The notes: a model not told the origin generated them from the letters alone. Positions 3,227 through 61,996 are shown, counted from the stretch's first letter. The stretch is 64,000 nucleotides of DNA from a virus (IMGVR_UViG_3300006899_000574); one strand, 5' to 3'. Translations and numbers: made by a program.

Positions 3227-3693
3227 CTTCTGCCTTCGTGCTGGTCCAGCACCTGCCTGGCAAGGTCTCGCTGTTCCTCGCAATAGGCGATGTAGGATTG
3301 CAAAACGTCAGACGTGATGGGCGTGAGGCTTTTCATCTTCACATCGAGACGCTCTACCCCGGACTCGCGCAGAGCGCAGAAGGCTCCAATGCGTGAGTGC
3401 AGGACCATGACGTTATGTTGTTTTTGCAAGTCGTCGCGGTTGAGTTCGGAGTTGTAATCGTATATCTGTTTTTTGACCTGGTTCCAGATCGCACGAAGTG
3501 TCCAGTGTTTTGTGAGGTCGATTTTCACATAAATGCTACCGCACAGCGGTTCGTGATCCATGTTGGTTGCGCCGCTCCACAGAACAGCGGTCTTCTCCCG
3601 CTTGCTGATCTTGAACCCCATCCAGCGCAGGATGAGTGTTATCTCCTCTTGAGACGTGCGGCCGGCTATCTTGATAAGCTGTTTCATTGTCAT
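3223..3693 (-). CDS. hypothetical protein (start at MTMKQ, ATGA overlap with the AAA gene stop)
   Basis: ORF plus coupling geometry. Confidence 0.4.
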   Translation of the reverse strand: MTMKQLIKIAGRTSQEEITLILRWMGFKISKREKTAVLWSGATNMDHEPLCGSIYVKIDLTKHWTLRAIWNQVKKQIYDYNSELNRDDLQKQHNVMVLHSRIGAFCALRESGVERLDVKMKSLTPITSDVLQSYIAYCEEQRDLARQVLDQHEGRR

Positions 3694-5009
3694 GTCTTGA
3701 TTTTCTCCCACAGCAGTTGTTGCGCCACGTCTCGACACATCTCCTGGAACTCCGCCCCCGACATCCCTTCGCCTTTACTGATAAGATCCTCAAACCAGGT
3801 CTGATGCTCGTCTCCAAGAATTTTCCTTACGATAACCATGCGACCTTCGCGAGACGGAAGAGGGAAGTCGAGCACACGATCAATGCGGCCCGGACGTATC
3901 AAGGCGGGGTCGATGGCAGACTCGTCATTCGTTGTCATCATGGTCAGCACTCCATGCCGTGCTCGGGCTCCATCCAGCACATTCAGCAGGCAGTCGAATG
4001 TAATGGGATTCAGGTCTCCACGGGCCTGCGTATTGACCCTGCCATGGAAGATGTTATCGATGTCTTCAAAAACTGCTACGATTGTCTGGTCTGATGTATA
4101 ACGCTCCCATAGCAAGACCAGATCCGCATTTGTCATAGAACCTAAATCAAATACGATGAGAGGCAACTGCAATGTCTGAGCCAGTGCCCGAATGAAACTT
4201 GTCTTGCCATTCCCGGGTGCGCCCTTCAATAGAAAACCGCGCTTCCAGGGGATGTCGCGAGCCGCATACCAGTCACGGTGGGCGAACCAGAATTTCACTT
4301 CCTCGATCGCCGTTCGCATATCATCTGTCATCGCCAGACTGCACTCAATGGTAAGTCGGTTCTGATCTGCTGGCTGAACGTCCTCGCGGCGATAAGTTAC
4401 AGGAAACAATGTGTTTCCATCGGCGGTAGTGTCTTCCGGTTCTTGGGAGTCAGGCGATTTTGAACCTTTAGTAGAAGGGGAGTTAGCACGTCCTAGCGGA
4501 ACGTTCAGATTCCCGCCTCCAAGACTACCTGTGACTGTGCGTGTCGTGAACCGGCTGATAGCCATATCAGCACTGTCCAGATCCTCCTGAATCTCCCGGA
4601 GCATGCGATGCACGCCAAATCTCAGGGGTCGAAAATAGTACAGACGCGTATGCCCATAATCTCCGTCCGCCAACACGGAAAAAATCCAGGGCGCGCGCCG
4701 AGACAGATGTAACACCGGTAAGTACGTGGTTCTTAGATGATACAAGAATGCACTCACCAGTTTCTGCGTGGGCTTGTAAAACACGCGCCTGGTAAAAACT
4801 CTTGGAGGACTCAAGGAGAATCGGTAGGACGTCGCGCAGAGATACCGGAGAATAGCATTTGCGTCTCCTGAAACCTGCATCTCGGCGATGACAATTGCTA
4901 CTACTTTGCCTGCCCACAGGAGCATCTTCTCCCTGGCGGCGACCATCACAGTCAGTATGCCTCCAAGCCCCGCAGTTGCGGCGAGCGTTGAAAAATCAAT
5001 CGGTCCCAT
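3690..5009 (-). CDS. AAA+ ATPase with N-terminal transmembrane segments (BCS1-like architecture)
   Basis: Walker A GAPGNGKTS, Walker B VFEDID, second region of homology PALIRPGRIDR; hydrophobic N-terminus. Confidence 0.8.
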   Translation of the reverse strand: MGPIDFSTLAATAGLGGILTVMVAAREKMLLWAGKVVAIVIAEMQVSGDANAILRYLCATSYRFSLSPPRVFTRRVFYKPTQKLVSAFLYHLRTTYLPVLHLSRRAPWIFSVLADGDYGHTRLYYFRPLRFGVHRMLREIQEDLDSADMAISRFTTRTVTGSLGGGNLNVPLGRANSPSTKGSKSPDSQEPEDTTADGNTLFPVTYRREDVQPADQNRLTIECSLAMTDDMRTAIEEVKFWFAHRDWYAARDIPWKRGFLLKGAPGNGKTSFIRALAQTLQLPLIVFDLGSMTNADLVLLWERYTSDQTIVAVFEDIDNIFHGRVNTQARGDLNPITFDCLLNVLDGARARHGVLTMMTTNDESAIDPALIRPGRIDRVLDFPLPSREGRMVIVRKILGDEHQTWFEDLISKGEGMSGAEFQEMCRDVAQQLLWEKIKT

Positions 5010-5226: not shown

Positions 5227-5492
5227 GACTCGCGCTGGGTTCCAGCGTCAGCGCAATCCTGGTGCGTACGGAATTTTGCCACACCCAGGCATACCATTGC
5301 CCGTTCTCCAGCCAGATGATCTTCTGGACCCCCGGCTGATCCCAGGCCGCCCTTACGGAATCCGGAAGTGATACGCGGTGTCCACATCCGCCGCAAAACT
5401 GCGTAGCCCCGCTCCTGCCAGACCAGCGAGAGCTTCTCGTAGGTCTCAAGTCTGGCTTCTTGTTGTTGAATAAAGAACGGTGAAAGGCTCAT
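5223..5492 (-). CDS. hypothetical protein (start at MSLSPFF, ATGA overlap with the ThyX stop)
   Basis: ORF plus coupling. Confidence 0.35.
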   Translation of the reverse strand: MSLSPFFIQQQEARLETYEKLSLVWQERGYAVLRRMWTPRITSGFRKGGLGSAGGPEDHLAGERAMVCLGVAKFRTHQDCADAGTQRES

Positions 5493-7393
5493 GATTTTTT
5501 CTCCAGAATCTTCCTGAATTGTACTACCCCAGCAGGTAGATTGCCTGACATCCATGGGTCAAGAACAATTTTCTTGTCAACTCCCCAGTCGCTACGCGGG
5601 GCCAGCCAGAACGCCAGGTCGGGATGCATGACCTGCATTTCAGCCGGTGAGTTCCCTGACACACAAGTTTTTCCATTTCTACGAACAATGAGTAACCCAG
5701 TCGAAACTGTGGCACAGTAGACCTCTCCTGTATATTTGATCTTAGAGAAGTTCTTACGTAGATGTCTGGAGTCGTTGAGGATCGACGAGGGCCTACGGCA
5801 CAGATTTAAGGAGAACACGGGTTGGGACTTGTGTGAACGTCGGTGTCGGTTCCCTTGTCGTAACGAAAAATTGTATCCATGTAGTGCCCCCAAGGTTTGG
5901 ATCTGATCTGCTAGTTTCGGACTAGTAGTCGCATACGTCCAAGTGTGCCTTTTGATGCTTCCGTCGGAATTTTTCAAGCCGTCCATCAGTGCGTGAACAA
6001 ACTCTGGAGAAGACTCATATATCCCATCAGGGAGACATTTTTGCCGATTGATATCATATAGCAAAGTATGGAATTCCTTAGCGAGACCGTCTCTCGCAAC
6101 CCAATAGGTGTTGTAATGCGGTTTTTCTACTAACTCAAAATTCAGGGTCTTACATATTGCGCGCAGATACGCAATTTTGCGAGGTTTCTTCAAATGGAAA
6201 GTTAACCTGCGGCCTCCGTGTTGCCCTATATCACGGGGGACACTCCCATCTCCAAGAAAAAATCCAACCAGTTTACCGAACTGGGGGTCGTCCTCGCTCC
6301 ACATCAAACAGTCTACATAGTTTGCTTTGGACGTAAGCGCGCAGTTGAGCATTTTTAAAGGAGAGGCCACGACTACTTCAAAAGGCGATTTTGCTACCCT
6401 TTCATTTGCAGGCCTGAGAGAGAAAACCTGACTCCCCCAAGGTTTTGAGGCATAGATCTGATGAGAGGGAGTGATCATCAAATTAAACCGGTGCGAAACT
6501 ATATGATACATCTCTTCATTGATCAGGCTATAGGACAGGAGTTGAGCTGGCCGTTCGAACCCCTGAAATTTTGAATCCCGAGGGTCCACGGTAGCTAAAC
6601 TATCATTTGTCTGAACGTTAGGCCACTTGATGAACCCTCTAGTTGTAAGCACCTCTGTCTCCGCGTCATAACAGGCGTGGATCGGCTGACTGCCGACGAG
6701 CTTCTGGTAGGTCCAGAGGTCATCTGCTATGGTGCTGGGCTTGTTGTTGCGCAGATACGAAACCCTCGCACAGCGTGCCACTGATGTCCGGATGTCTTGC
6801 AGGATCTCCGGTACGTTCTTTTCTACATACAATCTGTACGCATGCGTACGGCGGTCATCCACGTAGGGCAGGTGGATTTCGCGACGTGTCGGCGTGCTTA
6901 CGGCGAACGCATCGGCCATCTTCCGGGCCAATATCTGCATGTCGTGCTGGGCATCGCCATGGAGTCTGAGGTTGAAGAAGTTCTGTAACCCCGGAAGGCC
7001 AGTCGTCATTACAACTCTGACGTAGAGAAAGGGCTCCAGGAGCCTGTTGCAGATTTCCTTGTGGACCCCGAGTGCGTGCAGACATCCGGCGAACATCTTC
7101 GCACAACGCATGGCGGCTTTCCATGTCAGCCTGGCGACGGCATCCCGCCAGCCCGTCATATCAGCCCGAGGTTGCATGCCGGGGCCATTGACGGGGAACT
7201 CCGCCGGCACGTAGCAACAGCTCAATAGCAGAGTCTTGTGTGGCACTGCACGAGATGACGCCGCCGAGCGCGAGAACGTTCTGTGCGTATTGAGTTGCGC
7301 CAATAGGAAGCGCGGGAAGCACAGCTCGAACGTCAGAACGCGGACGCCATTGATGCTGGAGTCCAGGATGAGCTTTGCAGACGTCACGTTCAT
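5489..7393 (-). CDS. thyX: flavin-dependent thymidylate synthase ThyX, interrupted by an intein
   Basis: N-extein FELCFPRFLLAQLNTHRTFSRSAASSRA and NFFNLRLHGDAQHD align to the ThyX core (T. maritima [29 protein letters not shown] / NFLNLRADSHAQWE); the intein is described in the next feature. Confidence 0.6.
   Translation of the reverse strand: MNVTSAKLILDSSINGVRVLTFELCFPRFLLAQLNTHRTFSRSAASSRAVPHKTLLLSCCYVPAEFPVNGPGMQPRADMTGWRDAVARLTWKAAMRCAKMFAGCLHALGVHKEICNRLLEPFLYVRVVMTTGLPGLQNFFNLRLHGDAQHDMQILARKMADAFAVSTPTRREIHLPYVDDRRTHAYRLYVEKNVPEILQDIRTSVARCARVSYLRNNKPSTIADDLWTYQKLVGSQPIHACYDAETEVLTTRGFIKWPNVQTNDSLATVDPRDSKFQGFERPAQLLSYSLINEEMYHIVSHRFNLMITPSHQIYASKPWGSQVFSLRPANERVAKSPFEVVVASPLKMLNCALTSKANYVDCLMWSEDDPQFGKLVGFFLGDGSVPRDIGQHGGRRLTFHLKKPRKIAYLRAICKTLNFELVEKPHYNTYWVARDGLAKEFHTLLYDINRQKCLPDGIYESSPEFVHALMDGLKNSDGSIKRHTWTYATTSPKLADQIQTLGALHGYNFSLRQGNRHRRSHKSQPVFSLNLCRRPSSILNDSRHLRKNFSKIKYTGEVYCATVSTGLLIVRRNGKTCVSGNSPAEMQVMHPDLAFWLAPRSDWGVDKKIVLDPWMSGNLPAGVVQFRKILEKKS
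5651..6673 (-). mobile_element. intein with LAGLIDADG homing endonuclease inside thyX (about residues 241-581)
   Basis: Block A CYDAETEVLTTRG, block B TPSH, two LAGLIDADG motifs (LVGFFLGDGSV, HALMDGLKNSDGSI), block F/G VYCATVSTGLLIVRRNGKTCVSGN followed by Ser. Confidence 0.55.
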
Positions 7394-10650: not shown

Positions 10651-11206
10651 GTGACACCTCCTCTTGGGAGCCGGCGGCCAGTCTGCGGCTCGCGAGTTCC
10701 TGCATTTCTTCCGGTGTTAATTTCGTAACCGGGTGTTCTGCGGCAAACTTCTTGATGGCTTGCGCTAGGTGCCTGCCCTTGGACTTTGCACTCAGCATCT
10801 CCTGGTAATGCTCGTTTGAAACGTTGCTGTATCGATAGACGTGTCCGGAGCGGAATTCCACAAACAGTGTGTTGGCTTCGTGGGCGATGGCCCTGATGTT
10901 GCTGGACTGTACTTCTGTGAATTGAATCATTTGTCCAAACCTCTTTTTTTCTCTTTTTTTCATCCACCAGTCAAAAGCTCTTGCAGGCGGAAAAAATTGG
11001 CGACGCACTACCAGCTTGAGCAGAATAACGGGCAGTATGAGAAACCAGATCAAAGCGAGCATTACATTCTGCTCGTAGTCAATACCACCTCCGTCTCGTC
11101 GCCACCAATCGTAATTTTGGAGATCCAGATAGCAGATCACCCAGTAACCCAGAGTGTAACCTGCCGCATAGATGACGACGATGATAGCGACAACAAGCGC
11201 AGTCAT
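10643..11206 (-). CDS. membrane protein with C-terminal KTSC domain
   Basis: VQSSNIRAIAHEANTLFVEFRSGHVYRYSNVSNEHYQEMLSAKSKGRHLAQAIK fits the KTSC consensus; the N-terminus is hydrophobic. Confidence 0.6.
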   Translation of the reverse strand: MTALVVAIIVVIYAAGYTLGYWVICYLDLQNYDWWRRDGGGIDYEQNVMLALIWFLILPVILLKLVVRRQFFPPARAFDWWMKKREKKRFGQMIQFTEVQSSNIRAIAHEANTLFVEFRSGHVYRYSNVSNEHYQEMLSAKSKGRHLAQAIKKFAAEHPVTKLTPEEMQELASRRLAAGSQEEVSHA

Positions 11207-11466
11207 CACGGCTCCACCACGCACACAATGCTCGTGGCTTCGAAGATATAGAAATTCTTGCCCTCGACTGTGATCGTCGCCATCCTGGCGCCGCGTGCCC
11301 ACATCACTCTGTCTCCAACCGCGATGCCTTCCACTTCTTGCCCTACCGAGACCACGGTAGCAACCCGGGTTTCGTCGGGCTGTAACTCCACGATTCCCGA
11401 TGCCCGTGTGTGTTCGGTCTTTACTTCATCCAGTTCCAGGATGACTCTCTTACCCAGTGCTTGCAT
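11206..11466 (-). CDS. GroES-like co-chaperonin (Cpn10 / T4 gp31-like)
   Basis: 86 aa; the pattern LGKRVILELDEV...ASGIVEL...ATVVSVG...VGDRVMW mirrors the GroES beta-barrel layout. Confidence 0.5.
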   Translation of the reverse strand: MQALGKRVILELDEVKTEHTRASGIVELQPDETRVATVVSVGQEVEGIAVGDRVMWARGARMATITVEGKNFYIFEATSIVCVVEP

Positions 11467-11478
11467 TTGTGTATCCTC

Positions 11479-12933
11479 CTACTGCATGCGGAAGGCTCCC
11501 TGGATGGCGTTGATCATTGACCGCTGGCCATTTGCATACAGGAGACAACTGCTGTGAAGCCAAGAAGATGCGTGACCCTTTGTGTAGTCAAGATTTAATC
11601 TTGTTGTGGTGCCCACCACCCAGAGCGGTGACAGGATCTGTGGAGAGTGGAAGTGCCCGCAGATCGCCGGCCCAATGTTGCGCAGACTCTGCACGCCGCC
11701 ACGACTGCCGTTGGGGCCCTTGTCGCCGTGGCTTGCAAGCTGAATGCCGCAGACCTTGTAGTCCTGGTCGCGGCGCAACCACGTCGTCTTTTCGTCTTTG
11801 AAGCCCCGCTCCTTCAGGAACCACTCGATGGGATTGGAATGTCCGCTGAACATTGCTTCCAGCATGCGGTTACCGATGCGCAAGTTGTGGTCTTCCTTGA
11901 AGTGCTTGAGTGCCAGGATATGACGGTCCAGGAATTCGTTGTGGTTGGAGGCCACCATGAGGAACTCCGGTTTGGGAAACTTCCTTCTCCATAACTCCAG
12001 CGTGCTCTGCACGGCTTCGATCTCGGTCTCAATGCTTCTGAACTTCTCGGGCCTGCTGAGTCTCGCCACGACGTTGTGCTCCAGATGGTGGTTGGTAGAC
12101 AGCTGGTCAGCGAAGTCGTGAAACGCGATCCTGCGGGGCTTCACAAGCGCCGCGAGTTCTTGCCAGGCGAGGACCGCCATGGGGTCTTCACTGCCAACGT
12201 GGTAGTCGCCAATTACGAGAGCCTCCACTACAGCAGGCTTCCTCGTGTTTTCGACATAATAGGTTTCGAGATCATTGAAGCCACCGCTTTCATCCGCCTG
12301 GATCTGCCGGACGTGGAACAACACATTGTCCTCTACCTCCACGATGAGGCCGCCTACGACGTGGTCCTGCTCCGCCAGCATCCCCGCTCGTGTGCGGGCG
12401 TAGTTGTCGGCTACCGTGATGGCGCCTGTAGACAGCAGGAGATGCGGAGTGGCGAGATTGCTCACGGGCGTTGTGCGCATGTGCTGTTTGGGGTGCGCGA
12501 CGATCAGCGAGCGGTCTTTCTGACCCAGGCGGTCGAGTCCCAGGAGCGGCTGTTGTTGCTGTGGATACAGCATGAGATCCAGCGCCTTCAGGTTGGAGTT
12601 CAACACGTAGTCACTGACGAAGTGATTGGCGAATTGCTGAAGCTCCCGTGGATACATCTGGTTGGTCTTCGAAACCCCGCGCATCGGCAGGATAACGAGC
12701 TGTGCCTGTCTGTGCTTGCAGTAAGCCTGGGCTGTAGCAAAAAAGGCGTGATGCAGGGCCTGGCCGCCTACGGCCGATGCAAGGAGATAACGGCGGCGAG
12801 ATTTTCTCCGGCTGTCGTCTCGACTGACGTCAAACTCCTGACGACTGAAAGGCTGATCTTCTACTGGGATGTCTTCTGATTGAGGGGTAGGCTTCTTGTT
12901 GGAGATTGTCGATTTCGGCTTCTTCCCGCGCAT
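11479..12933 (-). CDS. calcineurin-like metallophosphoesterase (SbcD/Mre11-class fold, function unknown)
   Basis: VIGDYHVG, ASNHNEF and ICGHFHSP motifs. Confidence 0.55.
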   Translation of the reverse strand: MRGKKPKSTISNKKPTPQSEDIPVEDQPFSRQEFDVSRDDSRRKSRRRYLLASAVGGQALHHAFFATAQAYCKHRQAQLVILPMRGVSKTNQMYPRELQQFANHFVSDYVLNSNLKALDLMLYPQQQQPLLGLDRLGQKDRSLIVAHPKQHMRTTPVSNLATPHLLLSTGAITVADNYARTRAGMLAEQDHVVGGLIVEVEDNVLFHVRQIQADESGGFNDLETYYVENTRKPAVVEALVIGDYHVGSEDPMAVLAWQELAALVKPRRIAFHDFADQLSTNHHLEHNVVARLSRPEKFRSIETEIEAVQSTLELWRRKFPKPEFLMVASNHNEFLDRHILALKHFKEDHNLRIGNRMLEAMFSGHSNPIEWFLKERGFKDEKTTWLRRDQDYKVCGIQLASHGDKGPNGSRGGVQSLRNIGPAICGHFHSPQILSPLWVVGTTTRLNLDYTKGHASSWLHSSCLLYANGQRSMINAIQGAFRMQ

Positions 12934-47355: not shown

Positions 47356-47525
47356 TTACGGGCCTCCCACCTTCTCATCGTAACCGGAACCCCTGAAGCC
47401 GGGCATCCCTTGGTGCAACACTTGACAGTCTCATCCCAGGTGTCCCAGCGGTAAGGTCGTTTACCGCAGAACGGACACAGTTTTGCATTCAGCACTCGAT
47501 CATTCTTGTCTGTTTGGATCTTCAT
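47352..47525 (-). CDS. small zinc-ribbon protein (57 aa, below the ORF-track cut-off)
   Basis: Hand translation MKIQTDKNDRVLNAKLCPFCGKRPYRWDTWDETVKCCTKGCPASG... Confidence 0.3.
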   Translation of the reverse strand: MKIQTDKNDRVLNAKLCPFCGKRPYRWDTWDETVKCCTKGCPASGVPVTMRRWEARK

Positions 47526-48513
47526 ACAGTCCTCCTACTGGGATAAATTCCACAACCCAGACCCACGGGTTTGATTCCCATGATGCGCGATCTTTGTTGA
47601 TTGAATCCCACAGCGCACGAAAGGCTCCGGTAGCTGTCGCATACCCATGCGGTGCGCCGCCAGCAAATCCATAAGCCAGACCGTCCTGCCACGGCCAGGA
47701 CACCAGACCTTCAGCTAATGCATCTTTTTCGCTGATGTCCTGCAAGCGCTCCATTCTTACGTCAGTGATTTCTAACGTTATGCGGGATGCCCAGCGAGGC
47801 GAACAATCTATTCTATTATCGAAAGGAATCCATGTCTCATTCTTCAGTATGCGGGCTATCGTCTTGGGTGATAGATTATATTCTTTCGAGAGAGTCCATG
47901 CGCTTTTACCGGACACCCGCATTTCTTCAGCCTTTTGCATGGTGCATTTAGCATTATGATGGTCTTCATGGATTCCTCGCCCATGGGCTTTTCTGTCCAA
48001 CCAATTGCTTTCGTAATTACCCCAGTCAAGGTTTTCCGGGGCGTTGTCCAGCCTGTCCCCACTCAGATGGCGAACGCATGGCTTAACTATTGACTTTGGT
48101 GCTGGTCCATACCATGCCTCACATACAACAACATGGACACTTACGTTTACGTCTGCGCCACCTTTTCGAAGAGTAGTTCGCTCATACCCAGAGTTCGAGA
48201 TATGTGATTTTATTGGTTTCCAAATGCCTGTAGATTGCGACCACAATCGTCCTTTAATATCTGCCGCATACTTAGCATCGTAACCGGTTAAGACCATCGC
48301 TGGGATCAGACGATCGCCTTGCTGGCCGTAAGGGCAGACGATGCGTGAGCCCAGACCGTGATTAAACCTGTCTACCTCGTCATTGAAATAGCCATCATCT
48401 GCGATCCGCCGCGTCTGCGTCTTGCGTCCTTCGAGAATTGCGCGGACCATCGGCCCGGAGAATAAGATTGGTCGTTCCTTCATTTCGAAGGATGCTCCTT
48501 CGCACGGACACAA
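47500..48513 (-). CDS. ASCH-domain protein interrupted by an in-frame HNH endonuclease domain
   Basis: N-terminus ILFSGPMVRAILEGRKTQTRR and C-terminus ITLEITDVRMERLQDISEKDALAEG...VWVVEF form an ASCH fold; the central VHVVVCEAWYG...VRHLSGDRLDNAPENL is an HNH_3-type nuclease. Confidence 0.55.
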   Translation of the reverse strand: MCPCEGASFEMKERPILFSGPMVRAILEGRKTQTRRIADDGYFNDEVDRFNHGLGSRIVCPYGQQGDRLIPAMVLTGYDAKYAADIKGRLWSQSTGIWKPIKSHISNSGYERTTLRKGGADVNVSVHVVVCEAWYGPAPKSIVKPCVRHLSGDRLDNAPENLDWGNYESNWLDRKAHGRGIHEDHHNAKCTMQKAEEMRVSGKSAWTLSKEYNLSPKTIARILKNETWIPFDNRIDCSPRWASRITLEITDVRMERLQDISEKDALAEGLVSWPWQDGLAYGFAGGAPHGYATATGAFRALWDSINKDRASWESNPWVWVVEFIPVGGLYEDPNRQE

Positions 48514-53417: not shown

Positions 53418-53773
53418 TGGGCAACCTCCAACGGAGAGCTGTCGCGCGATGCCGTCCCCATTTGCTCCAGCAACCATGCTTTCTGCAAAATCAGGTAGCA
53501 CAGTGCGTCTCCAAATTTTTCATCGATCACCGCAGGCGTGGCTGGCGTAACTCCTGTAGTGATGTCGTAAATGGATGTCCAGTGCTTGCGCGCCATACCC
53601 ATGAGAGCTTGACCCGGGGAATCGTCTGAGCCCATGGGGAACTGCTTATGAGCATTCTTGAAATTGTGCAAGACATCTCGATCTGTCGCGTATTCCCCGC
53701 GCTTAGCGCGCATGGTTGTATTGATTAGATTCAGAGTGTTGTCCAGTATCGCATTGAACTCGTCTACCTTCAT
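53414..53773 (-). CDS. hypothetical protein
   Basis: 119 aa. Confidence 0.4.
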   Translation of the reverse strand: MKVDEFNAILDNTLNLINTTMRAKRGEYATDRDVLHNFKNAHKQFPMGSDDSPGQALMGMARKHWTSIYDITTGVTPATPAVIDEKFGDALCYLILQKAWLLEQMGTASRDSSPLEVAQ

Positions 53774-54543
53774 GCTTTTGCCCTCCCCGGTTTGTCTAAG
53801 ATTTCCATGACCTTCTGCGTCTCGTGTTGAAGAGACCTGACGTCGTCCTCAAACAACAAGGGCAGACAATGTCTGTCCAGCAACGCAAAAATCCCCCGAG
53901 ACCACGCCCTGGATTTCTCCAGCTCAACGTTGGAGAGGAAAATCGTTCGGCGACCGTTGGAAAGACGACTTCGCAACATCCTGTCCCAGGCCGCAATCAT
54001 TTTACTTCGGTTCTGATATAAAAACGACTTGGTTTCATCAAAGACTTCGTCGATGATCAGCAGGTCCACCAGCTCTGCCGCACGCAGATCCTGCTTGAGA
54101 TCCTGTGCTTCATATGAGAAGCTCTCATGGAAGAGGAGCGCGAGGTCTCCGGCCAGCACGTAGCGCACACTCAGGCTGGCTTTCAGAAACCCCCGGCCGA
54201 TAGCGCATGCCACGCTGGTCTTCCCGCTGTTATTTGGCCCCCAGAGATACAGGGATTTCTTCTGTACTGCGGGGTCGTGCAGATGGCGGATGTAGTTCAT
54301 GGCCCGCAGGAAGCTCTGCTTCGACTTCACAAAATTCTTACGGATGTCTACAAATTCCAGATTGTGATACTCGCGCGGGATGCCGCTCTTCTCTAAGAGA
54401 GATTTGTAGAATTGCTTTGGGGGATTGAAGTTCGGGTTCCGCGCGGAGTAGGTCTCGCCAGTGGCGGGATCAATTTCGTAGATGTAGGGCTCATCAGATT
54501 TTGTCCGGGATGCTGTAGTCATATTTGATTCTCGCGAGTGCAA
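53770..54543 (-). CDS. DnaC/IstB-like AAA+ helicase-loader ATPase
   Basis: Walker A LWGPNNSGKTS, Walker B LLIIDEV. Confidence 0.55.
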   Translation of the reverse strand: MHSRESNMTTASRTKSDEPYIYEIDPATGETYSARNPNFNPPKQFYKSLLEKSGIPREYHNLEFVDIRKNFVKSKQSFLRAMNYIRHLHDPAVQKKSLYLWGPNNSGKTSVACAIGRGFLKASLSVRYVLAGDLALLFHESFSYEAQDLKQDLRAAELVDLLIIDEVFDETKSFLYQNRSKMIAAWDRMLRSRLSNGRRTIFLSNVELEKSRAWSRGIFALLDRHCLPLLFEDDVRSLQHETQKVMEILDKPGRAKA

Positions 54544-54925
54544 AGTTCATACGTTCAGGACTGATCTCGTTCTTCCCTCTGGCCAGGCTGGCTTCAGGAA
54601 CCGGGATCTCCTTGCCGTTGATGGTAATAGTACTGGCCGGCAGGTAAACACATTTCCAGTCGTTGCTTAAGGAGTTGACTGTCGCACGGTTCACCGGCGC
54701 ATTCTGCTGGCGAAGAACCCAGGACACATACATGAACCAGATGTTGCGCTGAATGTCCTCTATTTCTTCCGTGCGCTTGGATAACTTTACCTCGAAGCTC
54801 AACAGCCCTGGCTCATCGACCAGCTTCATGATGTCGGCAATCGTGTCCTCGGTCAGGAACGCGAGATCCAGAATCAGCCGCTGTTTCTCCAGATCAAATT
54901 CACGTCCTGCGGCATGAATCTTCAT
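54494..54925 (-). CDS. hypothetical protein
   Basis: 143 aa. Confidence 0.4.
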   Translation of the reverse strand: MKIHAAGREFDLEKQRLILDLAFLTEDTIADIMKLVDEPGLLSFEVKLSKRTEEIEDIQRNIWFMYVSWVLRQQNAPVNRATVNSLSNDWKCVYLPASTITINGKEIPVPEASLARGKNEISPERMNFALARIKYDYSIPDKI

Positions 54926-55554
54926 CTCTCTTCTGCCGCCTTGATGAAAGTTGAATTGAGCAGGATAAAATCTCTTCGTTCGCGCTCATCCTGAATCTTC
55001 CGCACGGCCTTGAGAAACATGATCACGGGTTGATGTGCGATGCGGATCTCTTGCCTGTCGTCATCTCCAGTGAAACTGCGAGCCAGCAGGAACTTATCAT
55101 TCATCCAGATGAACATAATACGGCCGGTCTCAATTCGTGGCACCTCACGCTTTTGATTGAAGATATCTTCAGCGTGGATCTCCCCCGAGCGCACCATCTC
55201 GGCAAGTTCGGCGGCATCCAGCAGAACAGCAACTGTTTCTCCAGTGTCTACACGATAATGCGGGAACCGGTCCTCAAACGCCGATGTGAGTTTCTGGTGT
55301 ATGTCCTCAGGAGCCGGATTGTCTTGCAGATTGATGTCGTACGTATAGGGGCCTACATTGCACCGGATCACTCGATTGCTGTTGTCATAGGTGGTTACCA
55401 GTGGAACCGGGAAGCCGCTGACACATCGCTTGACTTCGTGCGCCACGCTTTGCAGGTAGTCGCGATCCAGTCCGCGCCTGGAGTTGAGGTATGCCTCATC
55501 CGATAGCCAGGAGTTTTTCGGCGGCGTTTCTTCTGGTTTGCCGTGTCGTGTCAT
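54922..55554 (-). CDS. hypothetical protein
   Basis: 210 aa. Confidence 0.45.
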   Translation of the reverse strand: MTRHGKPEETPPKNSWLSDEAYLNSRRGLDRDYLQSVAHEVKRCVSGFPVPLVTTYDNSNRVIRCNVGPYTYDINLQDNPAPEDIHQKLTSAFEDRFPHYRVDTGETVAVLLDAAELAEMVRSGEIHAEDIFNQKREVPRIETGRIMFIWMNDKFLLARSFTGDDDRQEIRIAHQPVIMFLKAVRKIQDERERRDFILLNSTFIKAAEER

Positions 55555-56648
55555 TTGCGGAACCCCATCACGAAATAAAAATTCTCATCATCTCGATGTA
55601 TCCGTGTGGCATGAATGTGGTGCCCGGGATCACGAAGATGGAATACGATGTTTCCACTCCCTTTCTTCAGGGCGCCTAACGCTCGTTTAAGATACAGGCC
55701 CGGAATTGCTCTATCGAAACCAGTCAGCGCGTCGAGATCCCCGCTGGCCTGTAACTGCTCGGACGCGAATGATTTCGAGCTTCGATGCTCCAGTGCTACA
55801 CCTTCCGGCCTGATCGTCAGAAACAGCTGGTGGTCCATGCTTTTGTCTGCGGCCACCAGCAAGCGCGTAAGTGCAGTGACAGTGCTGTCGTATGAGAGAC
55901 ACAGTCTGGATGGATGATCGAATATCTGTCTGCGCTCGTCAGCCGGCGTGTTCTGAATCGCAAGAGTTTGCCGAAGTGGAAACCAGAATTCCATCCCTTC
56001 GGCACTGAAGTTTTGTATCACGGTGTCTGCGGCTCGCAGGTAGTTCACCGTCACGGACTCCGTGAGTCCCAGAGCCGCCAGGGTCTTGATAATCTCCACG
56101 CCGTATAATACGGGTTGCGCCACCTTGTGCCCGGTATGTTGCCTGACTACAGCCAGTGTGCGGCTGTCGCTGGCAATAGCGGTTTCGTCGCAGAACAGCG
56201 CGACACCGGCATAGCCATGCGTTTTTCCGGTAAACGGTAACAGGTCTGCAAGGCTCTTCACGTCGGCCAGATGGTCGGTCTGGAACGGCACCAGAGTCTC
56301 CAGAACATCACATAACGACTTCTCGGGGTAGCGCATCTTGAAAGCCGGCATGCTGTAAGTGGCTCCGGAGAACTTCAGATCGCGCACCCCCAGCGTCACC
56401 AGCTCCTGGTGCGCATCAGTCAGTCGGCTCAAGGAAGCCAGGGTGGCTACCGGATAGATGGCTTCGAACGGCGTAGCGGTCTCATGCGGCGCGGTGTAGC
56501 GCACGATCGCCGCCGCAGACAGCAGTTGAATTTGCAATTGCTGTTCGGTTACTCGAACACGGATACGATTGTGATGAGCCTGTAGCTGATCCGCCAGGCG
56601 CGACATCACAGCTACCACTCGTGCCAGAACTTCTGCTCGGATTTTCAT
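55551..56648 (-). CDS. hypothetical protein immediately downstream of the SbcC-like gene (not Mre11-like; clamp-sized)
   Basis: 365 aa; no DxH/GNHE phosphoesterase motifs. Confidence 0.45.
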   Translation of the reverse strand: MKIRAEVLARVVAVMSRLADQLQAHHNRIRVRVTEQQLQIQLLSAAAIVRYTAPHETATPFEAIYPVATLASLSRLTDAHQELVTLGVRDLKFSGATYSMPAFKMRYPEKSLCDVLETLVPFQTDHLADVKSLADLLPFTGKTHGYAGVALFCDETAIASDSRTLAVVRQHTGHKVAQPVLYGVEIIKTLAALGLTESVTVNYLRAADTVIQNFSAEGMEFWFPLRQTLAIQNTPADERRQIFDHPSRLCLSYDSTVTALTRLLVAADKSMDHQLFLTIRPEGVALEHRSSKSFASEQLQASGDLDALTGFDRAIPGLYLKRALGALKKGSGNIVFHLRDPGHHIHATRIHRDDENFYFVMGFRK

Positions 56649-58516
56649 TCCACAACCTCCCCGTTGCGTAACTCCACAACATGGGCCCCAAAGTCGGAGA
56701 CCAGCATGTCAACGGTGTCCTGCCGATGCGTCACAATGATCCACTGCTTGACGCCTGGAGCGAAAGCCACCGCATTGGCGAACAGTCTGGCACTGTTGCT
56801 TTCAGTCGTGCTGGCGTCAACTTCATCAAGAATGATGAATTCCGACCCCTGCAATGCGCAGAGCGCGAGCCGGAACGCCATGGAAAGGATCTGTCGGTAG
56901 GCGCCGCCCAGCAAAACAGCTGGCGTGAACTGGCCGTCTCCACTGCTGAAGAAGAACTCCACGCTCTTATGGTCGCGCTTGATGCTCACGCGATGGTCGC
57001 TAAACCTCGCGAAGAACTCATTCATACGTTTCTCCACGAATGCCAGGCCAGACTCCAGCAGGTAGGCACTGAACTCTTTCTCCAGCAGGCCACGGGATTT
57101 TTCCGCCACTGTCTGGGCCTGAGTGAGTTCCTCCAGTTCCGCAGTCTTCAGCGTGATATCTGCGGCATTCCGCAGGCGCTGTTTCTCTTGCGCGAGGTTG
57201 AAGTCCAGTGCGGCTCTTACCTCGCGTTCGAAATCCCGATAGGCACGGGCACGCGCTTCCAGTTTACGATAGCCTTCGATATCAAATTCCGGCGGCGGGG
57301 GATAGGATAGAGGCTCCTGAGTTGGAGCACCTCCGGGGTCGGGAAGCGCTTGTAATTCCTTGCGCAGTTTCTCCAGCTCAACCTGTGCTTGTTGAATCAC
57401 GGCCCGCACCTGCTGATTCTTAACGTACGCCGCGCGCAGGGTCTTGATCTCCGCACTCAGAACTTTCACCCTGGGTTGCAACACCTGGAGTTCCGAGCGA
57501 AGCTCCTCAACCTGCTTTTGCAACGGCAGGGGATCGCCGATGTAGTCCTGCGCGCACTGCGAGCATTTTCCGGAGGCGATGAGCTTGAGCTTCGTTTCAC
57601 ATGAAACGATCTCTGACTGGATCTGCTGTATGCGCAAGGTGGCTGTGCGTTCTTCTGTTTCCAGAGGCTGGACATCCGCTATCGCAACCAGCTTGACTTT
57701 CTCCGACGCCAGCAGGGAAGCCTTCGATGCCACGGCGTCCTGGGCTTTTTTGTAAGCACGGCACTGACTGTCGTGCGCCTGCCTGGCTTTCTCAAACTCC
57801 TGTCGCTTCTGGTCTACGGCCGCAATGGCCTTTACGTGTTCTTCTCTGAGTTTCAGATACTCTTCGTAGGCCTTCTGCGCTTCCTGAAAGCGATCGATCA
57901 CCTGTGGGTCTTCCCGGGACTCCGGGATCTGCATGTCGTCAAACCGCATGGCCTGAAGGGTCTTCAGGACCGCCCGGGCTTCGGACGCATTGTCTTTGCA
58001 GGTCTTGGCACGGGCCTTCAGGAGTTCAACTGCCTTGCTTACGGTGTCCATCCCCAGTACGGACTTCAACCGCTGAAGACGTGGCGCGGCGTCATCAAAG
58101 ATGACGGATGTCGTGCGATGCTGGAGCGCAATGCTTCCGTACAGTGCGAGGTCTGTATCCATCAAGGTACCGAGAATCTCATTCACTGCTGTGGCGCCTT
58201 CGGCCAGCAACTCTCCGTTGCGCGAAAGAGTTTTTTTGGTGCGCTCAACACCGGCCTGGAGGTACAGCGCGTAGTCAGCTCCGTCTTCGACGAAATCTGT
58301 CTCTATCTCGTAGGTTTTTGCTCCACTGCTGTCATTGACGAAATCCGCCAGATTGGACTCGGCGTAGCCAGTGACAGCCAGGGTGAGCCCCTCAATGGAG
58401 GAAGTTTTCCCGCTGTTGTTGTCCCCGCGCAAGACGTTCACGCCTGGCCGGAGGAGGATGTTTACCTCCCCCGGAATGCGTTTGAATCTCCGCAGACTCA
58501 GGCGACGGAAGATCAC
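56645..58516 (-). CDS. Rad50/SbcC-like ABC ATPase with zinc hook
   Basis: N-terminal Walker A GDNNSGKTS; central coiled coil with GKCSQCAQ (CxxC hook); C-terminal signature and Walker B FIILDEVD. Confidence 0.7.
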   Translation of the reverse strand: MIFRRLSLRRFKRIPGEVNILLRPGVNVLRGDNNSGKTSSIEGLTLAVTGYAESNLADFVNDSSGAKTYEIETDFVEDGADYALYLQAGVERTKKTLSRNGELLAEGATAVNEILGTLMDTDLALYGSIALQHRTTSVIFDDAAPRLQRLKSVLGMDTVSKAVELLKARAKTCKDNASEARAVLKTLQAMRFDDMQIPESREDPQVIDRFQEAQKAYEEYLKLREEHVKAIAAVDQKRQEFEKARQAHDSQCRAYKKAQDAVASKASLLASEKVKLVAIADVQPLETEERTATLRIQQIQSEIVSCETKLKLIASGKCSQCAQDYIGDPLPLQKQVEELRSELQVLQPRVKVLSAEIKTLRAAYVKNQQVRAVIQQAQVELEKLRKELQALPDPGGAPTQEPLSYPPPPEFDIEGYRKLEARARAYRDFEREVRAALDFNLAQEKQRLRNAADITLKTAELEELTQAQTVAEKSRGLLEKEFSAYLLESGLAFVEKRMNEFFARFSDHRVSIKRDHKSVEFFFSSGDGQFTPAVLLGGAYRQILSMAFRLALCALQGSEFIILDEVDASTTESNSARLFANAVAFAPGVKQWIIVTHRQDTVDMLVSDFGAHVVELRNGEVVE

Positions 58517-59181
58517 CGCAGATCCTTACGAAGCGCGTTGATACGCTTGTGGTCCTGCTTGATGACGGCCTGAAGCGCCACGATCCTCTCTTCATTGACT
58601 GCGATGCGCGTGGTCAATCGCTGAATCATGGTCTGCGGAGACACGACGTTTTTCACTGCCCGAAGTTTGCCATGCGCGGTCATGATGAAGTGACTCTCGG
58701 GGATCTTGTGTTCCTTGATGAGTTGAGCGCGTATGCTCTCCACGATTTTTGGATATACGCCGCATGCTCTGGCAATCGGCCGGTTTCCCTGCATGTAATA
58801 CTCCATGAGCATAGCTCTAACGAGCCCGCGCTTGCTCTCAATGGTCATCTGCCGGCGATGAGTATTTTCCGTCGCCGCAAAGAATGCTCTTTGTTCGCCT
58901 CCGGCGATTTCTACTTCCTCACATGGAAGTTTGATCCCGGCTTTAATGGCGCCCTCACGTCGCGTCCAGCCCGACAAAATGAAGAACGTGTTGTCCTTGA
59001 AATATCCCTTGACCGAGTCTCTTACGCGGCCTTCGCGTGCGATCGACTCAAAGATCGACTCCTTGTCTTCGGGCGCAGTTGGCATGGCCTTCTGGATGCG
59101 GGCGAGTTCCGGCGCGAGCCGACACTTCGCGGGATCTAGTAGAAAGACCTTGCGTGTTTCAGTTTGTGTCTTGGTTGTCAT
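58513..59181 (-). CDS. ParB-like nuclease N-terminal domain protein (tentative)
   Basis: FFILSGWTRREGAIKAGIK resembles the ParB/Srx motif. Confidence 0.35.
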   Translation of the reverse strand: MTTKTQTETRKVFLLDPAKCRLAPELARIQKAMPTAPEDKESIFESIAREGRVRDSVKGYFKDNTFFILSGWTRREGAIKAGIKLPCEEVEIAGGEQRAFFAATENTHRRQMTIESKRGLVRAMLMEYYMQGNRPIARACGVYPKIVESIRAQLIKEHKIPESHFIMTAHGKLRAVKNVVSPQTMIQRLTTRIAVNEERIVALQAVIKQDHKRINALRKDLR

Positions 59182-59386
59182 TTACTTGCTCCTTATTTCG
59201 CTGAGACTTCAGGACCAGCGGTTTGACATATCCGCTCTGCCTGTATTGCTTGCTCAGAAAACTCTTCTGAATGTTTTTACGAAATTGTTCCGGTGTCAAG
59301 CCGGATTTTCGTTTCTCTCTGTGTTTCATCAGTGACCCTCTTCTATAATTTGGCTCGTCCTGACAGATAGGCGATGTAATCCTCAT
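59159..59386 (-). CDS. hypothetical small basic protein
   Basis: 75 aa. Confidence 0.3.
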   Translation of the reverse strand: MRITSPICQDEPNYRRGSLMKHREKRKSGLTPEQFRKNIQKSFLSKQYRQSGYVKPLVLKSQRNKEQVNDNQDTN

Positions 59387-60311
59387 CTGTCAGTAAAAAT
59401 CCTGCGGCGGCGCGGTGCCCACCGCCACCATACTGGCGCGCGATGGTATTGACGGCGACATCGGGCCGTGATGTGCGAAGACTGAACTGATTGCGGTCGT
59501 TATTCAGCATGAGCTTCACACACGCATAGTCGGCCTCAAGGAACTCCTGCTGAATCAGATAGGCCATCAACGATGCCTGTGCGCGTTCCGCTTCTATGTA
59601 GACATAGGGCCGGCCGGAGCGATCTTCTTTCATAACAGCAGTGCGCTTAACGCGCTTAAAGGACTGATTTTCTTTCTGACGAGCATTGTGAATGATGTAA
59701 TCCTCAGCATCTGTGAAATACCACTCGTCCTGGAATCGGACTTTCTCCAGCTGGGTTTCTACGAAACGATTCAAACCGTCCGGATTGCGATCCGTGTAGA
59801 AGTACAGGATGTTGTTGAGATCCAGCGCCGCGCGAAAATCCGGACTGCCCGACTGCCAGGTGTCGTAGACCTGAGTGAGTTCTACCAGACGACGTAACAC
59901 GGGGTTTGTGTCGTCCGCCATCCAGTTGTATACCAGCATTGCGCTACAGTGCTCCGCCGACCAGAAGACGTCGGGACTCTGGAGAATTTCTGGCGCACGA
60001 GGATGGTGATCCCAGAGCCAGAGGCGAGATTTATTCTGTCGGTCACGTAGATCACTCCAGTGCTCGGGCGTCACGCATAGATCCACGAAGCCGATGCTTC
60101 CATAGCCCACAAGAGAAGAGCTACGCACCACCTCATCTACCTCGGCGGCATGAGTCTGTATGATCTCGCATGGCATGCAGAAATACTGGAAGCACAAACG
60201 TCCCACTGTGCCGTCGAGATCACTGTCGCAGAACAACAGTGTTTGCGTATAAAATCTGCCGTTCATCGTCTGAGAATCAGGGCGACTCGTCTTCTGACGC
60301 ATGGTCTTCAA
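59343..60311 (-). CDS. DHH/DHHA1 phosphoesterase (RecJ/NrnA-like)
   Basis: FCDSDLDG (motif I), LWDHH (DHH) and GGGH (DHHA1). Confidence 0.7.
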   Translation of the reverse strand: MKTMRQKTSRPDSQTMNGRFYTQTLLFCDSDLDGTVGRLCFQYFCMPCEIIQTHAAEVDEVVRSSSLVGYGSIGFVDLCVTPEHWSDLRDRQNKSRLWLWDHHPRAPEILQSPDVFWSAEHCSAMLVYNWMADDTNPVLRRLVELTQVYDTWQSGSPDFRAALDLNNILYFYTDRNPDGLNRFVETQLEKVRFQDEWYFTDAEDYIIHNARQKENQSFKRVKRTAVMKEDRSGRPYVYIEAERAQASLMAYLIQQEFLEADYACVKLMLNNDRNQFSLRTSRPDVAVNTIARQYGGGGHRAAAGFLLTDEDYIAYLSGRAKL

Positions 60312-60645
60312 GGCGAGCAGACTGAGAAGGTTTCGAATTGAAACGTATATTACTGGCTCGCAGGGCCCAGCTGTATTGCCTCTTGCCCTCCTGGTCCTGC
60401 CAGGACCGCTGAACCATGCTCCCCGTTACCGTCACGGAACTGCCTTTTTTCAAATACTGTGCGGCCGCTTCTCCGGGCTTCCCCCAGACCTCAACCTTGA
60501 AATACGAAACATCTGGCTTATCTGACCACGATCTGAGATTATTGGCAACAGTGAAGTTGCAGACCGCCGATGAGCTGGAGACGTGTTTGTATTCCGGGTC
60601 GGCCGTCAGATTTCCGTCGATGACGATGAGGTTCAGGTTTTCCAT
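60277..60645 (-). CDS. ssb: single-stranded DNA-binding protein
   Basis: OB fold resembling bacterial SSB (LIVIDGNLTADPEYK...FKVEVWGKPGEAAAQYLKKGSSVTVTGSMVQRSWQDQEGKRQYS); acidic C-terminal tail. Confidence 0.65.
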   Translation of the reverse strand: MENLNLIVIDGNLTADPEYKHVSSSSAVCNFTVANNLRSWSDKPDVSYFKVEVWGKPGEAAAQYLKKGSSVTVTGSMVQRSWQDQEGKRQYSWALRASNIRFNSKPSQSARLEDHASEDESP

Positions 60646-61126: not shown

Positions 61127-61996
61127 TTACCGGGTGGGAATTTGGAGTCCGCCTCCTCGCTCGAAGACATCCGGGGTATCGCCGACATCAACGCCTCGAT
61201 TCGGTGCCTGCGCTGTTCGGCGGGCCTTACTTTCGGCGCTGGTTTGTTTTGCGCGTTGGAATTTTTTTTTTACTCTGGGACTACGAACGGGAGCAACCTG
61301 AAGTGCGGGAGCATTCTCCTGATGAGGTTCCTCCTCATCAGGCTCCCCCACGGGAGTCGTTTCCACATATACTTCGGGGGAGACCGTCGTTACGGACTTC
61401 TCTCTCAAGTCCTTCATGCCGGCACGCTGTAATTTACGTGCATCCCTTACGGCCTTCTGCTCAGCCAGCCTGCGTTGCTTGGCCTCCTGAATGCGCAACG
61501 ACATCTCCTCGGATTTCAGACGCTGGTGGAATTGTGATCTGAGAGACGACATCGTGATGATCATGATTGGCAACACCACAGAAAACAACAGGGACGACAA
61601 AATCTTGAGACCGTCGATCATCTGCACGTCTTTCCACACCAGCTGTTGAACGTCCGCGATGTTGGCGAGCGTATAGGATGCATTGCCGTAGAAGTTGACG
61701 ACGGTAAAAAATCCCAGGGACCAGTAGAGCCCCTGCGCACTCTCTCCTCTGCGCTTGCGGTCAGCGATACCGGAGGAGATGAACAACACTCCGGATTCCA
61801 CCGCGATGGCGAAGATCCATGCGGTGAGCCCCGGCGGTAGCCAGCCCTCGGCGACTTCATACGCCGCAACAGCTACTGACAGGTGATAGAGTGACACCGC
61901 CAGAGCGGAAATCAGCGACACCACCATGCCCCAGTATAGCCACCAGGTTGTGCGCAGAGACGAAGGCGATACAGAGAGAGCGACTTTCTTTGCCAT
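61127..61996 (-). CDS. membrane protein with basic cytoplasmic tail
   Basis: Five to six hydrophobic helices, then a K/R-rich region. Confidence 0.45.
   Translation of the reverse strand: MAKKVALSVSPSSLRTTWWLYWGMVVSLISALAVSLYHLSVAVAAYEVAEGWLPPGLTAWIFAIAVESGVLFISSGIADRKRRGESAQGLYWSLGFFTVVNFYGNASYTLANIADVQQLVWKDVQMIDGLKILSSLLFSVVLPIMIITMSSLRSQFHQRLKSEEMSLRIQEAKQRRLAEQKAVRDARKLQRAGMKDLREKSVTTVSPEVYVETTPVGEPDEEEPHQENAPALQVAPVRSPRVKKKFQRAKQTSAESKARRTAQAPNRGVDVGDTPDVFERGGGLQIPTR

Follow-up and report, generated by a model that had tools for sequence, protein, structure and literature searches.

An ATPase-clamp gene pair in a phage operon

We analysed a 64,000-nucleotide (nt) stretch of the virus IMGVR_UViG_3300006899_000574 (hereafter the window, with positions counted from its first letter), in which a gene for a Rad50/SbcC-like ATP-binding cassette (ABC) ATPase of 623 amino acids (aa) is directly followed by a gene for a 365-aa protein with the predicted fold of a DnaN-type sliding clamp, and in which no Mre11/SbcD gene adjoins the ATPase. 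The minus strand carries nearly all long open reading frames (ORFs) of the window, and between ~60.6 and ~53.4 kb these form a chain joined by 4-nt overlaps of stop and start codons, in the order single-strand DNA-binding protein (SSB), DHH phosphoesterase, 222-aa protein, ATPase, clamp, 210-aa protein, 143-aa protein, and DnaC-like helicase loader (Table 1). The ATPase starts with GTG, overlapping the stop codon of the gene upstream, and the start of the clamp gene, whose product begins MKIRAEVLARVV, overlaps the ATPase stop by 4 nt. An earlier annotation of this stretch (the original prediction) had given both ORFs (55551-58516) with the coordinates and lengths that we recover. A portal-like gene and further structural genes sit elsewhere in the window, and the chain represents an early operon for replication and recombination in a tailed phage; a promoter and terminator scan returned signals no better than chance.

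The ATPase has the architecture of Rad50 with a degenerate signature motif

Several models place the ATPase close to Rad50. The protein passes two superfamily-level Pfam models, SMC_N (4e-12; 46.5 bits against a gathering threshold of 40) and AAA_23, its best PHROG is PHROG 77 (the "SbcC-like"/gp46 family, 6.5e-34), and its top sequence matches in the PDB are archaeal Rad50 heads (2e-16), with M. jannaschii Rad50 aligning in both lobes. In the alignment to PDB Rad50 the N lobe corresponds to residues 1-164 and the C lobe to residues 417-604, and the overall layout comprises an N-lobe (~1-165), a coiled coil with a central hook (~166-470), and a C-lobe (~471-623). The ~300 residues between the lobes are rich in A, E, K, Q, and L and nearly free of glycine, and halfway between the lobes (165 and 417-470) lies the CSQC sequence (residues 318-321) of a predicted zinc hook, whose GKCxxC pattern is invariant in all ATPase relatives found. 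The descending arm of the coiled coil also contains a proline-rich break, with 7 prolines in 25 residues (393-417).

These matches, together with the GKCSQC motif, bear out the original description of a Rad50-like ATPase with a zinc hook. That description had gone further and credited the protein with all Rad50 hallmarks, which holds for the Walker A motif, the Q-loop (LQ132, i.e. Gln132), the Walker B motif, the H-loop, and the CSQC hook, but not for the ABC signature. At residues ~536-541 the signature reads (L)GGAY in the window, in its close relative L001, and in the fragment available from L003, with the serine lost; the AT-rich relatives have SGFE where canonical Rad50 has SGGE, and a single glycine is all that is invariant. 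The Rad50 equivalogs of NCBIfam are the best NCBIfam matches of the ATPase, yet they score 35-48 bits against cut-offs of 700-1087. Given a Rad50 architecture with equivalog scores this far below threshold, the protein is Rad50-like in architecture and not an orthologue by score.

The neighbouring 365-aa protein is predicted to be a beta clamp

The 365-aa protein itself matches no Pfam or NCBIfam model, and PHROG 947 ("DNA polymerase processivity factor") matches it end to end (8e-8). Among its relatives, 3 of 7 match Pfam DNA_pol3_beta_3 (4e-6), and a profile of the whole clamp family compared with the PDB matched beta clamps collinearly (7evp at 4.9e-5, among others). An hhalign alignment with E. 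coli DnaN was collinear and weak; within it, the segment IASDSRTLAVV aligns with the client-pocket segment VATDGHRLAV of E. coli, a correspondence that is suggestive only. Structure prediction proved more informative. AlphaFold run on a two-sequence alignment gave a mean predicted local distance difference test (pLDDT) score of 30.7, and after distant relatives from an exhaustive HMMER search had been added, the resulting seven-sequence alignment led AlphaFold (AF2) to a monomer model with a pLDDT of 86.6 and a predicted template modelling (pTM) score of 0.83. When this model was compared with the PDB using Foldseek, the top 50 matches were all bacterial DnaN proteins, aligned over the full length of the 365-aa protein with E-values down to 4e-18 and template modelling (TM) scores of 0.68-0.75, and many phage DnaN proteins were matched in BFVD.

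Since a confident model coincides with a full-length DnaN match, the 365-aa protein is, on the predicted structure, a three-domain DnaN-type sliding clamp and not a divergent Mre11. This agrees with its having been called "beta-clamp sized" and devoid of calcineurin-like nuclease motifs in the original prediction, which had also proposed structure prediction as a check on a possible Mre11 identity: the fold returned matches DnaN along the full length, and neither a motif scan for phosphoesterase motifs I-V (DxH, GDxxD, GNH[DE], H, GH) nor the SbcD profile described below found such motifs in this protein. The clamp fold and the missing phosphoesterase motifs together rule out the divergent-Mre11 identity.

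No Mre11/SbcD gene was detected near the ATPase

We built a hidden Markov model (HMM) from E. coli SbcD and phage SbcDs and scanned it on all ORFs of at least 60 aa. Nothing scored better than E ~0.7 in the 64-kb window or in four contigs carrying relatives of its genes (L001, 15 kb; L002, 15 kb; L007, 21 kb; L008, 12.7 kb), SbcD was likewise not found in a fifth, L093, and T4 gp47 used as a query had no match in the window or in the related contigs. As controls we used five generic phage SbcC loci from IMG/VR (L010-L014), which were rejected as relatives because they belong to an SbcC subfamily different from that of the window ATPase. SbcD was detected in all five (E from 2e-8 to ~1e-150), immediately upstream of SbcC in four and at a distance of 3.5 kb in the other, and in T4 two small ORFs separate gene 46 from gene 47 upstream of it. 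None of the clamp-linked ATPase loci, versus 5/5 control loci, thus has a nearby SbcD, and given the controls the occurrence of this ATPase without an Mre11 gene beside it is beyond chance. The original statement that no Mre11/SbcD adjoins the ATPase therefore stands on the SbcD HMM, the gp47 query, and the motif scan, all of them negative.

Two other phosphoesterase candidates in the window were examined and discarded. The original prediction had pointed to the 484-aa protein at 11479-12933 as the only Mre11-like phosphoesterase of the window, a claim that did not survive: the protein is instead a T5 A1-like "DNA transfer protein", for which tblastn matches 1131 phage records carrying an A1 or DNA-transfer annotation (the best being Ochrobactrum phage vB_OspM_OC, 31%), and this similarity, together with the lack of a match to the SbcD HMM, rules it out as the missing Mre11. 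Its reported GroES-like neighbour is indeed there (11206-11466, minus strand; Cpn10, 2.2e-7). A second phosphoesterase, which had gone unlisted, is a 196-aa protein with weak similarity to YfcE/PdeM; its size, its E of ~1 with the SbcD HMM, and its phrog_547 match rule it out as SbcD.

One explanation of these negatives is that the ATPase belongs to an ordinary Mre11-Rad50 pair whose SbcD/Mre11 gene lies beyond the sequenced DNA, the adjoining clamp gene being no more than a remnant of an ancient T4-like layout (47-46-45-44/62-43). The T4 gene order, the assignment of the ATPase to the gp46/SbcC family as best PHROG, the alignment of its N-lobe to gp46, and the partial state of the genomes are all consistent with this. 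It is nonetheless quite unlikely in our view, because the partner gene would have to lie much farther away than the short distances seen in the controls and in T4, beyond the 64 kb available here and the 12-21 kb flanking the pair in four further contigs, and because the slot upstream of the ATPase is occupied by unrelated genes that differ from lineage to lineage.

The pair is conserved and co-inherited across six distant lineages

Relatives of the two genes proved rare. In searches for cultured relatives, tblastn with the ATPase, the clamp, and distant members of both families against 50,697 phage records yielded nothing useful, and the clamp alignment scanned against IMG/VR and JGI gave no match. 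A word-indexed search with the clamp returned a single close relative, and the exhaustive HMMER search, covering 1.84 billion representatives, returned six proteins only. Searching with a degenerate DNA pattern designed for the ATPase added one new lineage (L093/L097/L113) from JGI metagenomes, with only chance-level matches in IMG/VR and GTDB genomes. The ATPase-clamp cassette has so far been seen only in a handful of metagenomic phage contigs (L001-L008 and L093/L097/L113), which group with the window into six lineages: window/L001, L003, L004/L005, L002, L007/L008, and L093/L097/L113. L006 was too short to be included in the linkage count.

The ATPase gene precedes the clamp gene in all six lineages, each with visible upstream DNA (6/6). 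In L001 (clamp identity 82%) the two genes overlap by 1 nt, in L003 (40%) by 8 nt, and in L004/L005 (21%) by 4 nt; the ATPase fragment of L003 (GAYRQIL...ILDEVD...VTHK) is clearly the same ATPase, and the 43-aa fragment of L004/L005 is recognised by the family HMM (E 8e-8). In the remaining lineages the genes are separate: a 617-aa ATPase is followed by the clamp after a 40-nt gap in L007/L008 (17%), a 667-aa ATPase with a GKCDKC hook by one 80-aa ORF and then the clamp in L002 (16%), and a 705-aa ATPase with GKKCPTCGQDYIGDPL by three small ORFs and then the clamp in L093/L097/L113. The gene overlaps of the higher-GC lineages suggest translational coupling.

Between lineages, the ATPases share 22-35% identity and the clamps 11-40%, the two proteins diverge in parallel, and GC content ranges from 26 to 54%. 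This wide spread, combined with parallel divergence, means that the pair is co-inherited and was not repeatedly assembled, and its recurrence in ATPase-then-clamp order in six lineages is what is new here. The remaining neighbours are reshuffled among lineages, with RecA just upstream of the cassette in the AT-rich ones (L002, L007), a dUTPase or an SNF2 helicase downstream in relatives, and the DHH gene adjoining PolA in L007 and SSB in the window. PolA and the DHH protein are common to several lineages. A PolA fragment homologous to that of L007 (2.7e-48) occurs in L001 (3-878, minus strand), just past the point corresponding to the right end of the window, from which the phage of the window probably also encodes PolA, on the opposite strand and just outside the stretch.

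A third gene accompanies the pair in most of these loci. Homologues of the 210-aa protein, whose gene was not covered by the original prediction, immediately follow the clamp gene in L001, L002, and L003; in L004 one ORF intervenes. They share invariant residues that include N14, W16, E116, E119, E142, G144, D153, and R171, and the window protein matches nothing in Pfam, PHROG, NCBIfam, PADLOC, or PDB sequences, nor T4 gp62. The 210-aa proteins constitute a new orphan family.

Table 1 Features of the ATPase-clamp locus, conserved motifs of the ATPase, and phosphoesterase-related genes outside the cassette. Positions refer to the window unless a contig is named.
Feature	Position	Strand	Evidence and remarks
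Single-strand DNA-binding protein (SSB)	60277-60645	-	Pfam SSB 1.7e-25
DHH/DHHA1 phosphoesterase, 322 aa (RecJ/NrnA superfamily)	59343-60311	-	Conserved in L007/L008, there adjoining PolA
222-aa protein, weak ParB-like similarity	58513-59181	-	phrog_17439; directly upstream of ATPase; window and L001 only
Rad50/SbcC-like ABC ATPase, 623 aa	56645-58516	-	Pfam SMC_N/AAA_23, PHROG 77, PDB Rad50
Walker A GDNNSGKT, ATPase residues 31-38	58403-58426	-	G31, G36, K37 invariant in family alignment
Predicted zinc-hook motif GKCSQC, ATPase residues 316-321	57554-57571	-	Mid coiled coil; GK(K)CxxC in 5/5 full-length relatives
Walker B FIILDE, ATPase residues 560-565	56822-56839	-	Followed by D-loop (VD) and H-loop (VTHR)
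Predicted DnaN-type beta sliding clamp, 365 aa, three clamp domains	55551-56648	-	PHROG 947, AF2, Foldseek
210-aa protein, conserved third gene	54922-55554	-	Start overlaps clamp stop by 4 nt
Homologues of the 210-aa protein	L001 10823-11458; L003 1365-2066; L002 11101-11931; L004 1598-2203		Family of ~210-276 aa
143-aa protein	54494-54925	-	Same overlapping chain; also in L001 and L003
DnaC/IstB-like AAA+ helicase loader	53770-54543	-	PHROG 50 5.3e-24; Pfam IstB_IS21
T5 A1-like "DNA transfer protein", 484 aa	11479-12933	-	Outside cassette; phrog_1745 1.1e-94 over residues 12-481
Small metallophosphoesterase, 196 aa	2333-2923	-	Outside cassette; DxH/GD/GNHD motifs; phrog_547 5.5e-46

The link is specific to this family but has partial counterparts in known systems

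Beta clamps are commonly encoded by phages (321 phage records in a tblastn search with E. coli DnaN). None of nine annotated phage clamp neighbourhoods has an SMC/Rad50-like gene beside the clamp (0/9), so the link is specific to the ATPase-clamp family described here. Other recombination or replication genes take that place instead: RecE, RecT, and a small ORF precede dnaN in Ralstonia phage Gerry, RecT and a small ORF precede it in Thermus phage Lalka27b, the clamp lies between a ParB-like gene and a helicase in Serratia phage Eta, and PolA is followed by the clamp in BcepC6B. The DnaN clamps of Gerry, Lalka27b, and Salinibacter phage M1EM-1 share the fold predicted for the 365-aa protein and lie in early replication/recombination modules; they differ in lacking the ATPase neighbour, and their identity is too low for detection by the clamp HMM or by tblastn.

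The closest parallel in gene order is T4, in which genes are transcribed in the order 47, 46.2, 46.1, 46, 45.2, rpbA, 45, 44, 62, regA, 43. As in the window family, a Rad50 gene is followed by small ORFs and then by the sliding-clamp gene, and T4 gp46 belongs to the PHROG family of the ATPase (560 aa, versus 623 aa here). T4 differs in that Mre11 (gp47) is encoded shortly before this block and an AAA+ clamp loader immediately after it; neither was found in the window family. The T4 clamp is a 228-aa protein of the PCNA type that forms trimers, in contrast to the three-domain DnaN-type protein predicted here. No complex of gp46 with gp45 is known from T4. Since T4 combines a similar gene order with a retained Mre11, adjacency alone is no proof of an ATPase-clamp partnership.

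Cellular systems provide further points of comparison. With SbcCD/Mre11-Rad50 the window ATPase shares a split ABC head, an antiparallel coiled coil, and a CxxC hook, and it differs in its short coiled coil (~300 aa in total), its degenerate signature, and the lack of a detected partner gene. The E. coli dnaN-recF locus likewise places the gene of a Rad50-head-like ABC ATPase next to that of a beta clamp, in the reverse order, and E. coli RecF scores E 2e-12 with our ATPase family profile. RecF, however, is a 357-aa protein with neither coiled coil nor hook, whereas the window ATPase carries an inserted coiled coil of 250-300 aa with a hook; for this reason, and because Rad50 models outscore RecF models, an identification of the window ATPase as RecF was rejected. 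RecF, itself a Rad50-head-like ATPase, binds DnaN directly (PMC10287930). In P. furiosus, PCNA binds and stimulates Mre11-Rad50 (PMC6009593), coupling a clamp to a Rad50 machine at DNA ends, but the contact is made through a motif of Mre11 that is missing here, and unlike in the window family the genes form no fixed pair. SbcC foci of B. subtilis co-localise with the replisome (PMC1533848).

Rad50-like ATPases of ~600 aa that act without Mre11 are also known, namely LmuB, RloC, and RecN, of which RloC carries a zinc hook as well (PMC3458546). This raises the question of a defence or counter-defence role, in which the window ATPase would be an SMC-like sensor carried by the phage, similar to LmuB of Lamassu, or a decoy. 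The LmuB model of PADLOC matches over its full length (2e-15 for the window ATPase, 1e-23 for that of L007), the heads of mad3, AriA, and GajA are matched too, and repair machinery of the Rad50 type has been described as the origin of Lamassu (PMC12663957). PHROG SbcC-like and Rad50 scores are higher, however, and five neighbouring genes gave no significant defence model: LmuA and LmuC were not matched, and the single listing was Cas10d, at a borderline E of 0.006 with the 222-aa protein. The window also differs from Lamassu and RloC in having neither LmuA/LmuC nor a fused nuclease, and in having a clamp as neighbour in a replication context of SSB, DHH, helicase loader, RecA, and PolA. With the cassette behaving as part of a core, vertically inherited phage gene set, we regard a defence function as very unlikely.

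Other genes of the window and its relatives

Several further genes were noted in passing. A 634-aa protein (5489-7393, minus strand) has its best match to thymidylate synthase (phrog_85, 1.5e-60) over residues 5-240; a second matched stretch was also reported, and the C-terminal part may represent a fusion. A 439-aa protein (3690-5009, minus strand) is a classic-clade AAA+ ATPase (PAN/CDC48/FtsH-like), not a clamp loader, and also matches the NCBIfam model "anti-phage ATPase IteA" (3e-15). A 337-aa HNH endonuclease (47500-48513, minus strand; phrog_59, phrog_874) is possibly a homing endonuclease. The RecA gene of L002 (3970-6150, plus strand; 726 aa) is split by an intein that carries a LAGLIDADG endonuclease domain, giving the Pfam order RecA_N, Intein_splicing, LAGLIDADG_2, and RecA_C. 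Finally, the replication gene region encodes a multi-pass membrane protein, its tail rich in Lys/Glu, that is conserved between the most distant lineages, the window (61127-61996, minus strand) and L007 (12314-13513, plus strand; 1.2e-16).

A possible Mre11-independent role in recombination-dependent replication or fork restart

Because a Rad50-like ATPase without an Mre11 gene is linked to a clamp in six distant lineages, this ATPase probably works without Mre11. Our preferred interpretation, to which we assign a probability of about 0.5, is that an Mre11-independent relative of Rad50 acts in one pathway with a genuine sliding clamp, in recombination-dependent replication or fork restart. In such a pathway the ATPase would form dimers, joined by the hook and by the ATP-bound heads, and would recognise or tether DNA ends or branched intermediates, while the clamp would serve as a ring-shaped processivity factor that brings in a polymerase, so that an end or junction held by the ATPase could be handed over to the clamp-bound polymerase. 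If a nuclease takes part, it would be provided in trans, with the DHH, ParB-like, and 210-aa proteins as possible sources. The cassette belongs to an uncultured tailed phage that probably uses a family-A DNA polymerase. By analogy with RecF-DnaN and PCNA-Mre11/Rad50, direct contact of the ATPase or the 210-aa protein with the clamp is plausible.

Several observations weigh against a shared Mre11-independent pathway. The functional links are drawn wholly from gene order, and the genomes are visible only in part (at most 64 kb), so that an Mre11 may be encoded elsewhere. Family-A polymerases are not generally clamp-dependent, and no clamp loader was recognised, either with T4 gp44 as a query or as an RFC- or DnaX-like gene. 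No homologue of the 210-aa protein was detected in L007/L008. In addition, with the signature serine lost (GGAY), ATP-driven engagement of the heads may be weak or altered.

A stronger version of the argument is that the clamp, with or without the 210-aa protein, forms a physical complex with the ATPase as its dedicated head-bound partner and takes the place of Mre11. The ring might then hold the ATPase at DNA ends or junctions; alternatively, the SMC-type ATPase might act, together with the 210-aa protein, as a non-AAA+ clamp loader or unloader. The constant gene order in 6/6 lineages with parallel divergence, the overlap of stop and start codons in four lineages, the third co-conserved gene right after the clamp, the absence of such an ATPase from the nine other phage beta-clamp neighbourhoods, the failure to recognise a clamp-loader gene, and the precedent of the RecF-DnaN interaction would all fit such a complex. 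On the other hand, T4, which possesses a normal loader as well as Mre11, shares the order with no known complex, the ATPase and clamp genes of L002 and L093 have one to three small ORFs between them, and no convincing clamp-binding motif was seen on inspection by eye. We therefore consider a dedicated complex possible, if on balance unlikely. The "non-canonical partner" of the original prediction accordingly holds up in part: conserved linkage and parallel divergence speak for it, while the T4 order with Mre11 kept, and the position of other phage clamps beside other recombination and replication genes, speak against it.

Whatever its mechanism, the cassette marks out a small and deeply diverged set of uncultured phages with PolA, the DHH protein, the Rad50-like ATPase, and the clamp in common. 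Rad50 is generally considered inseparable from Mre11, and the known exceptions, RecN, RloC, and LmuB, have each changed function. Should the link amount to mere gene order, these phages would carry an unusual yet unremarkable replication module. If ATPase and clamp are functionally coupled, end-tethering would be tied directly to clamp-dependent DNA synthesis, or the pair would represent a new clamp-loading route; and if they form a physical complex, a sliding clamp, and not Mre11, would be the obligate partner of a member of the Rad50 family.

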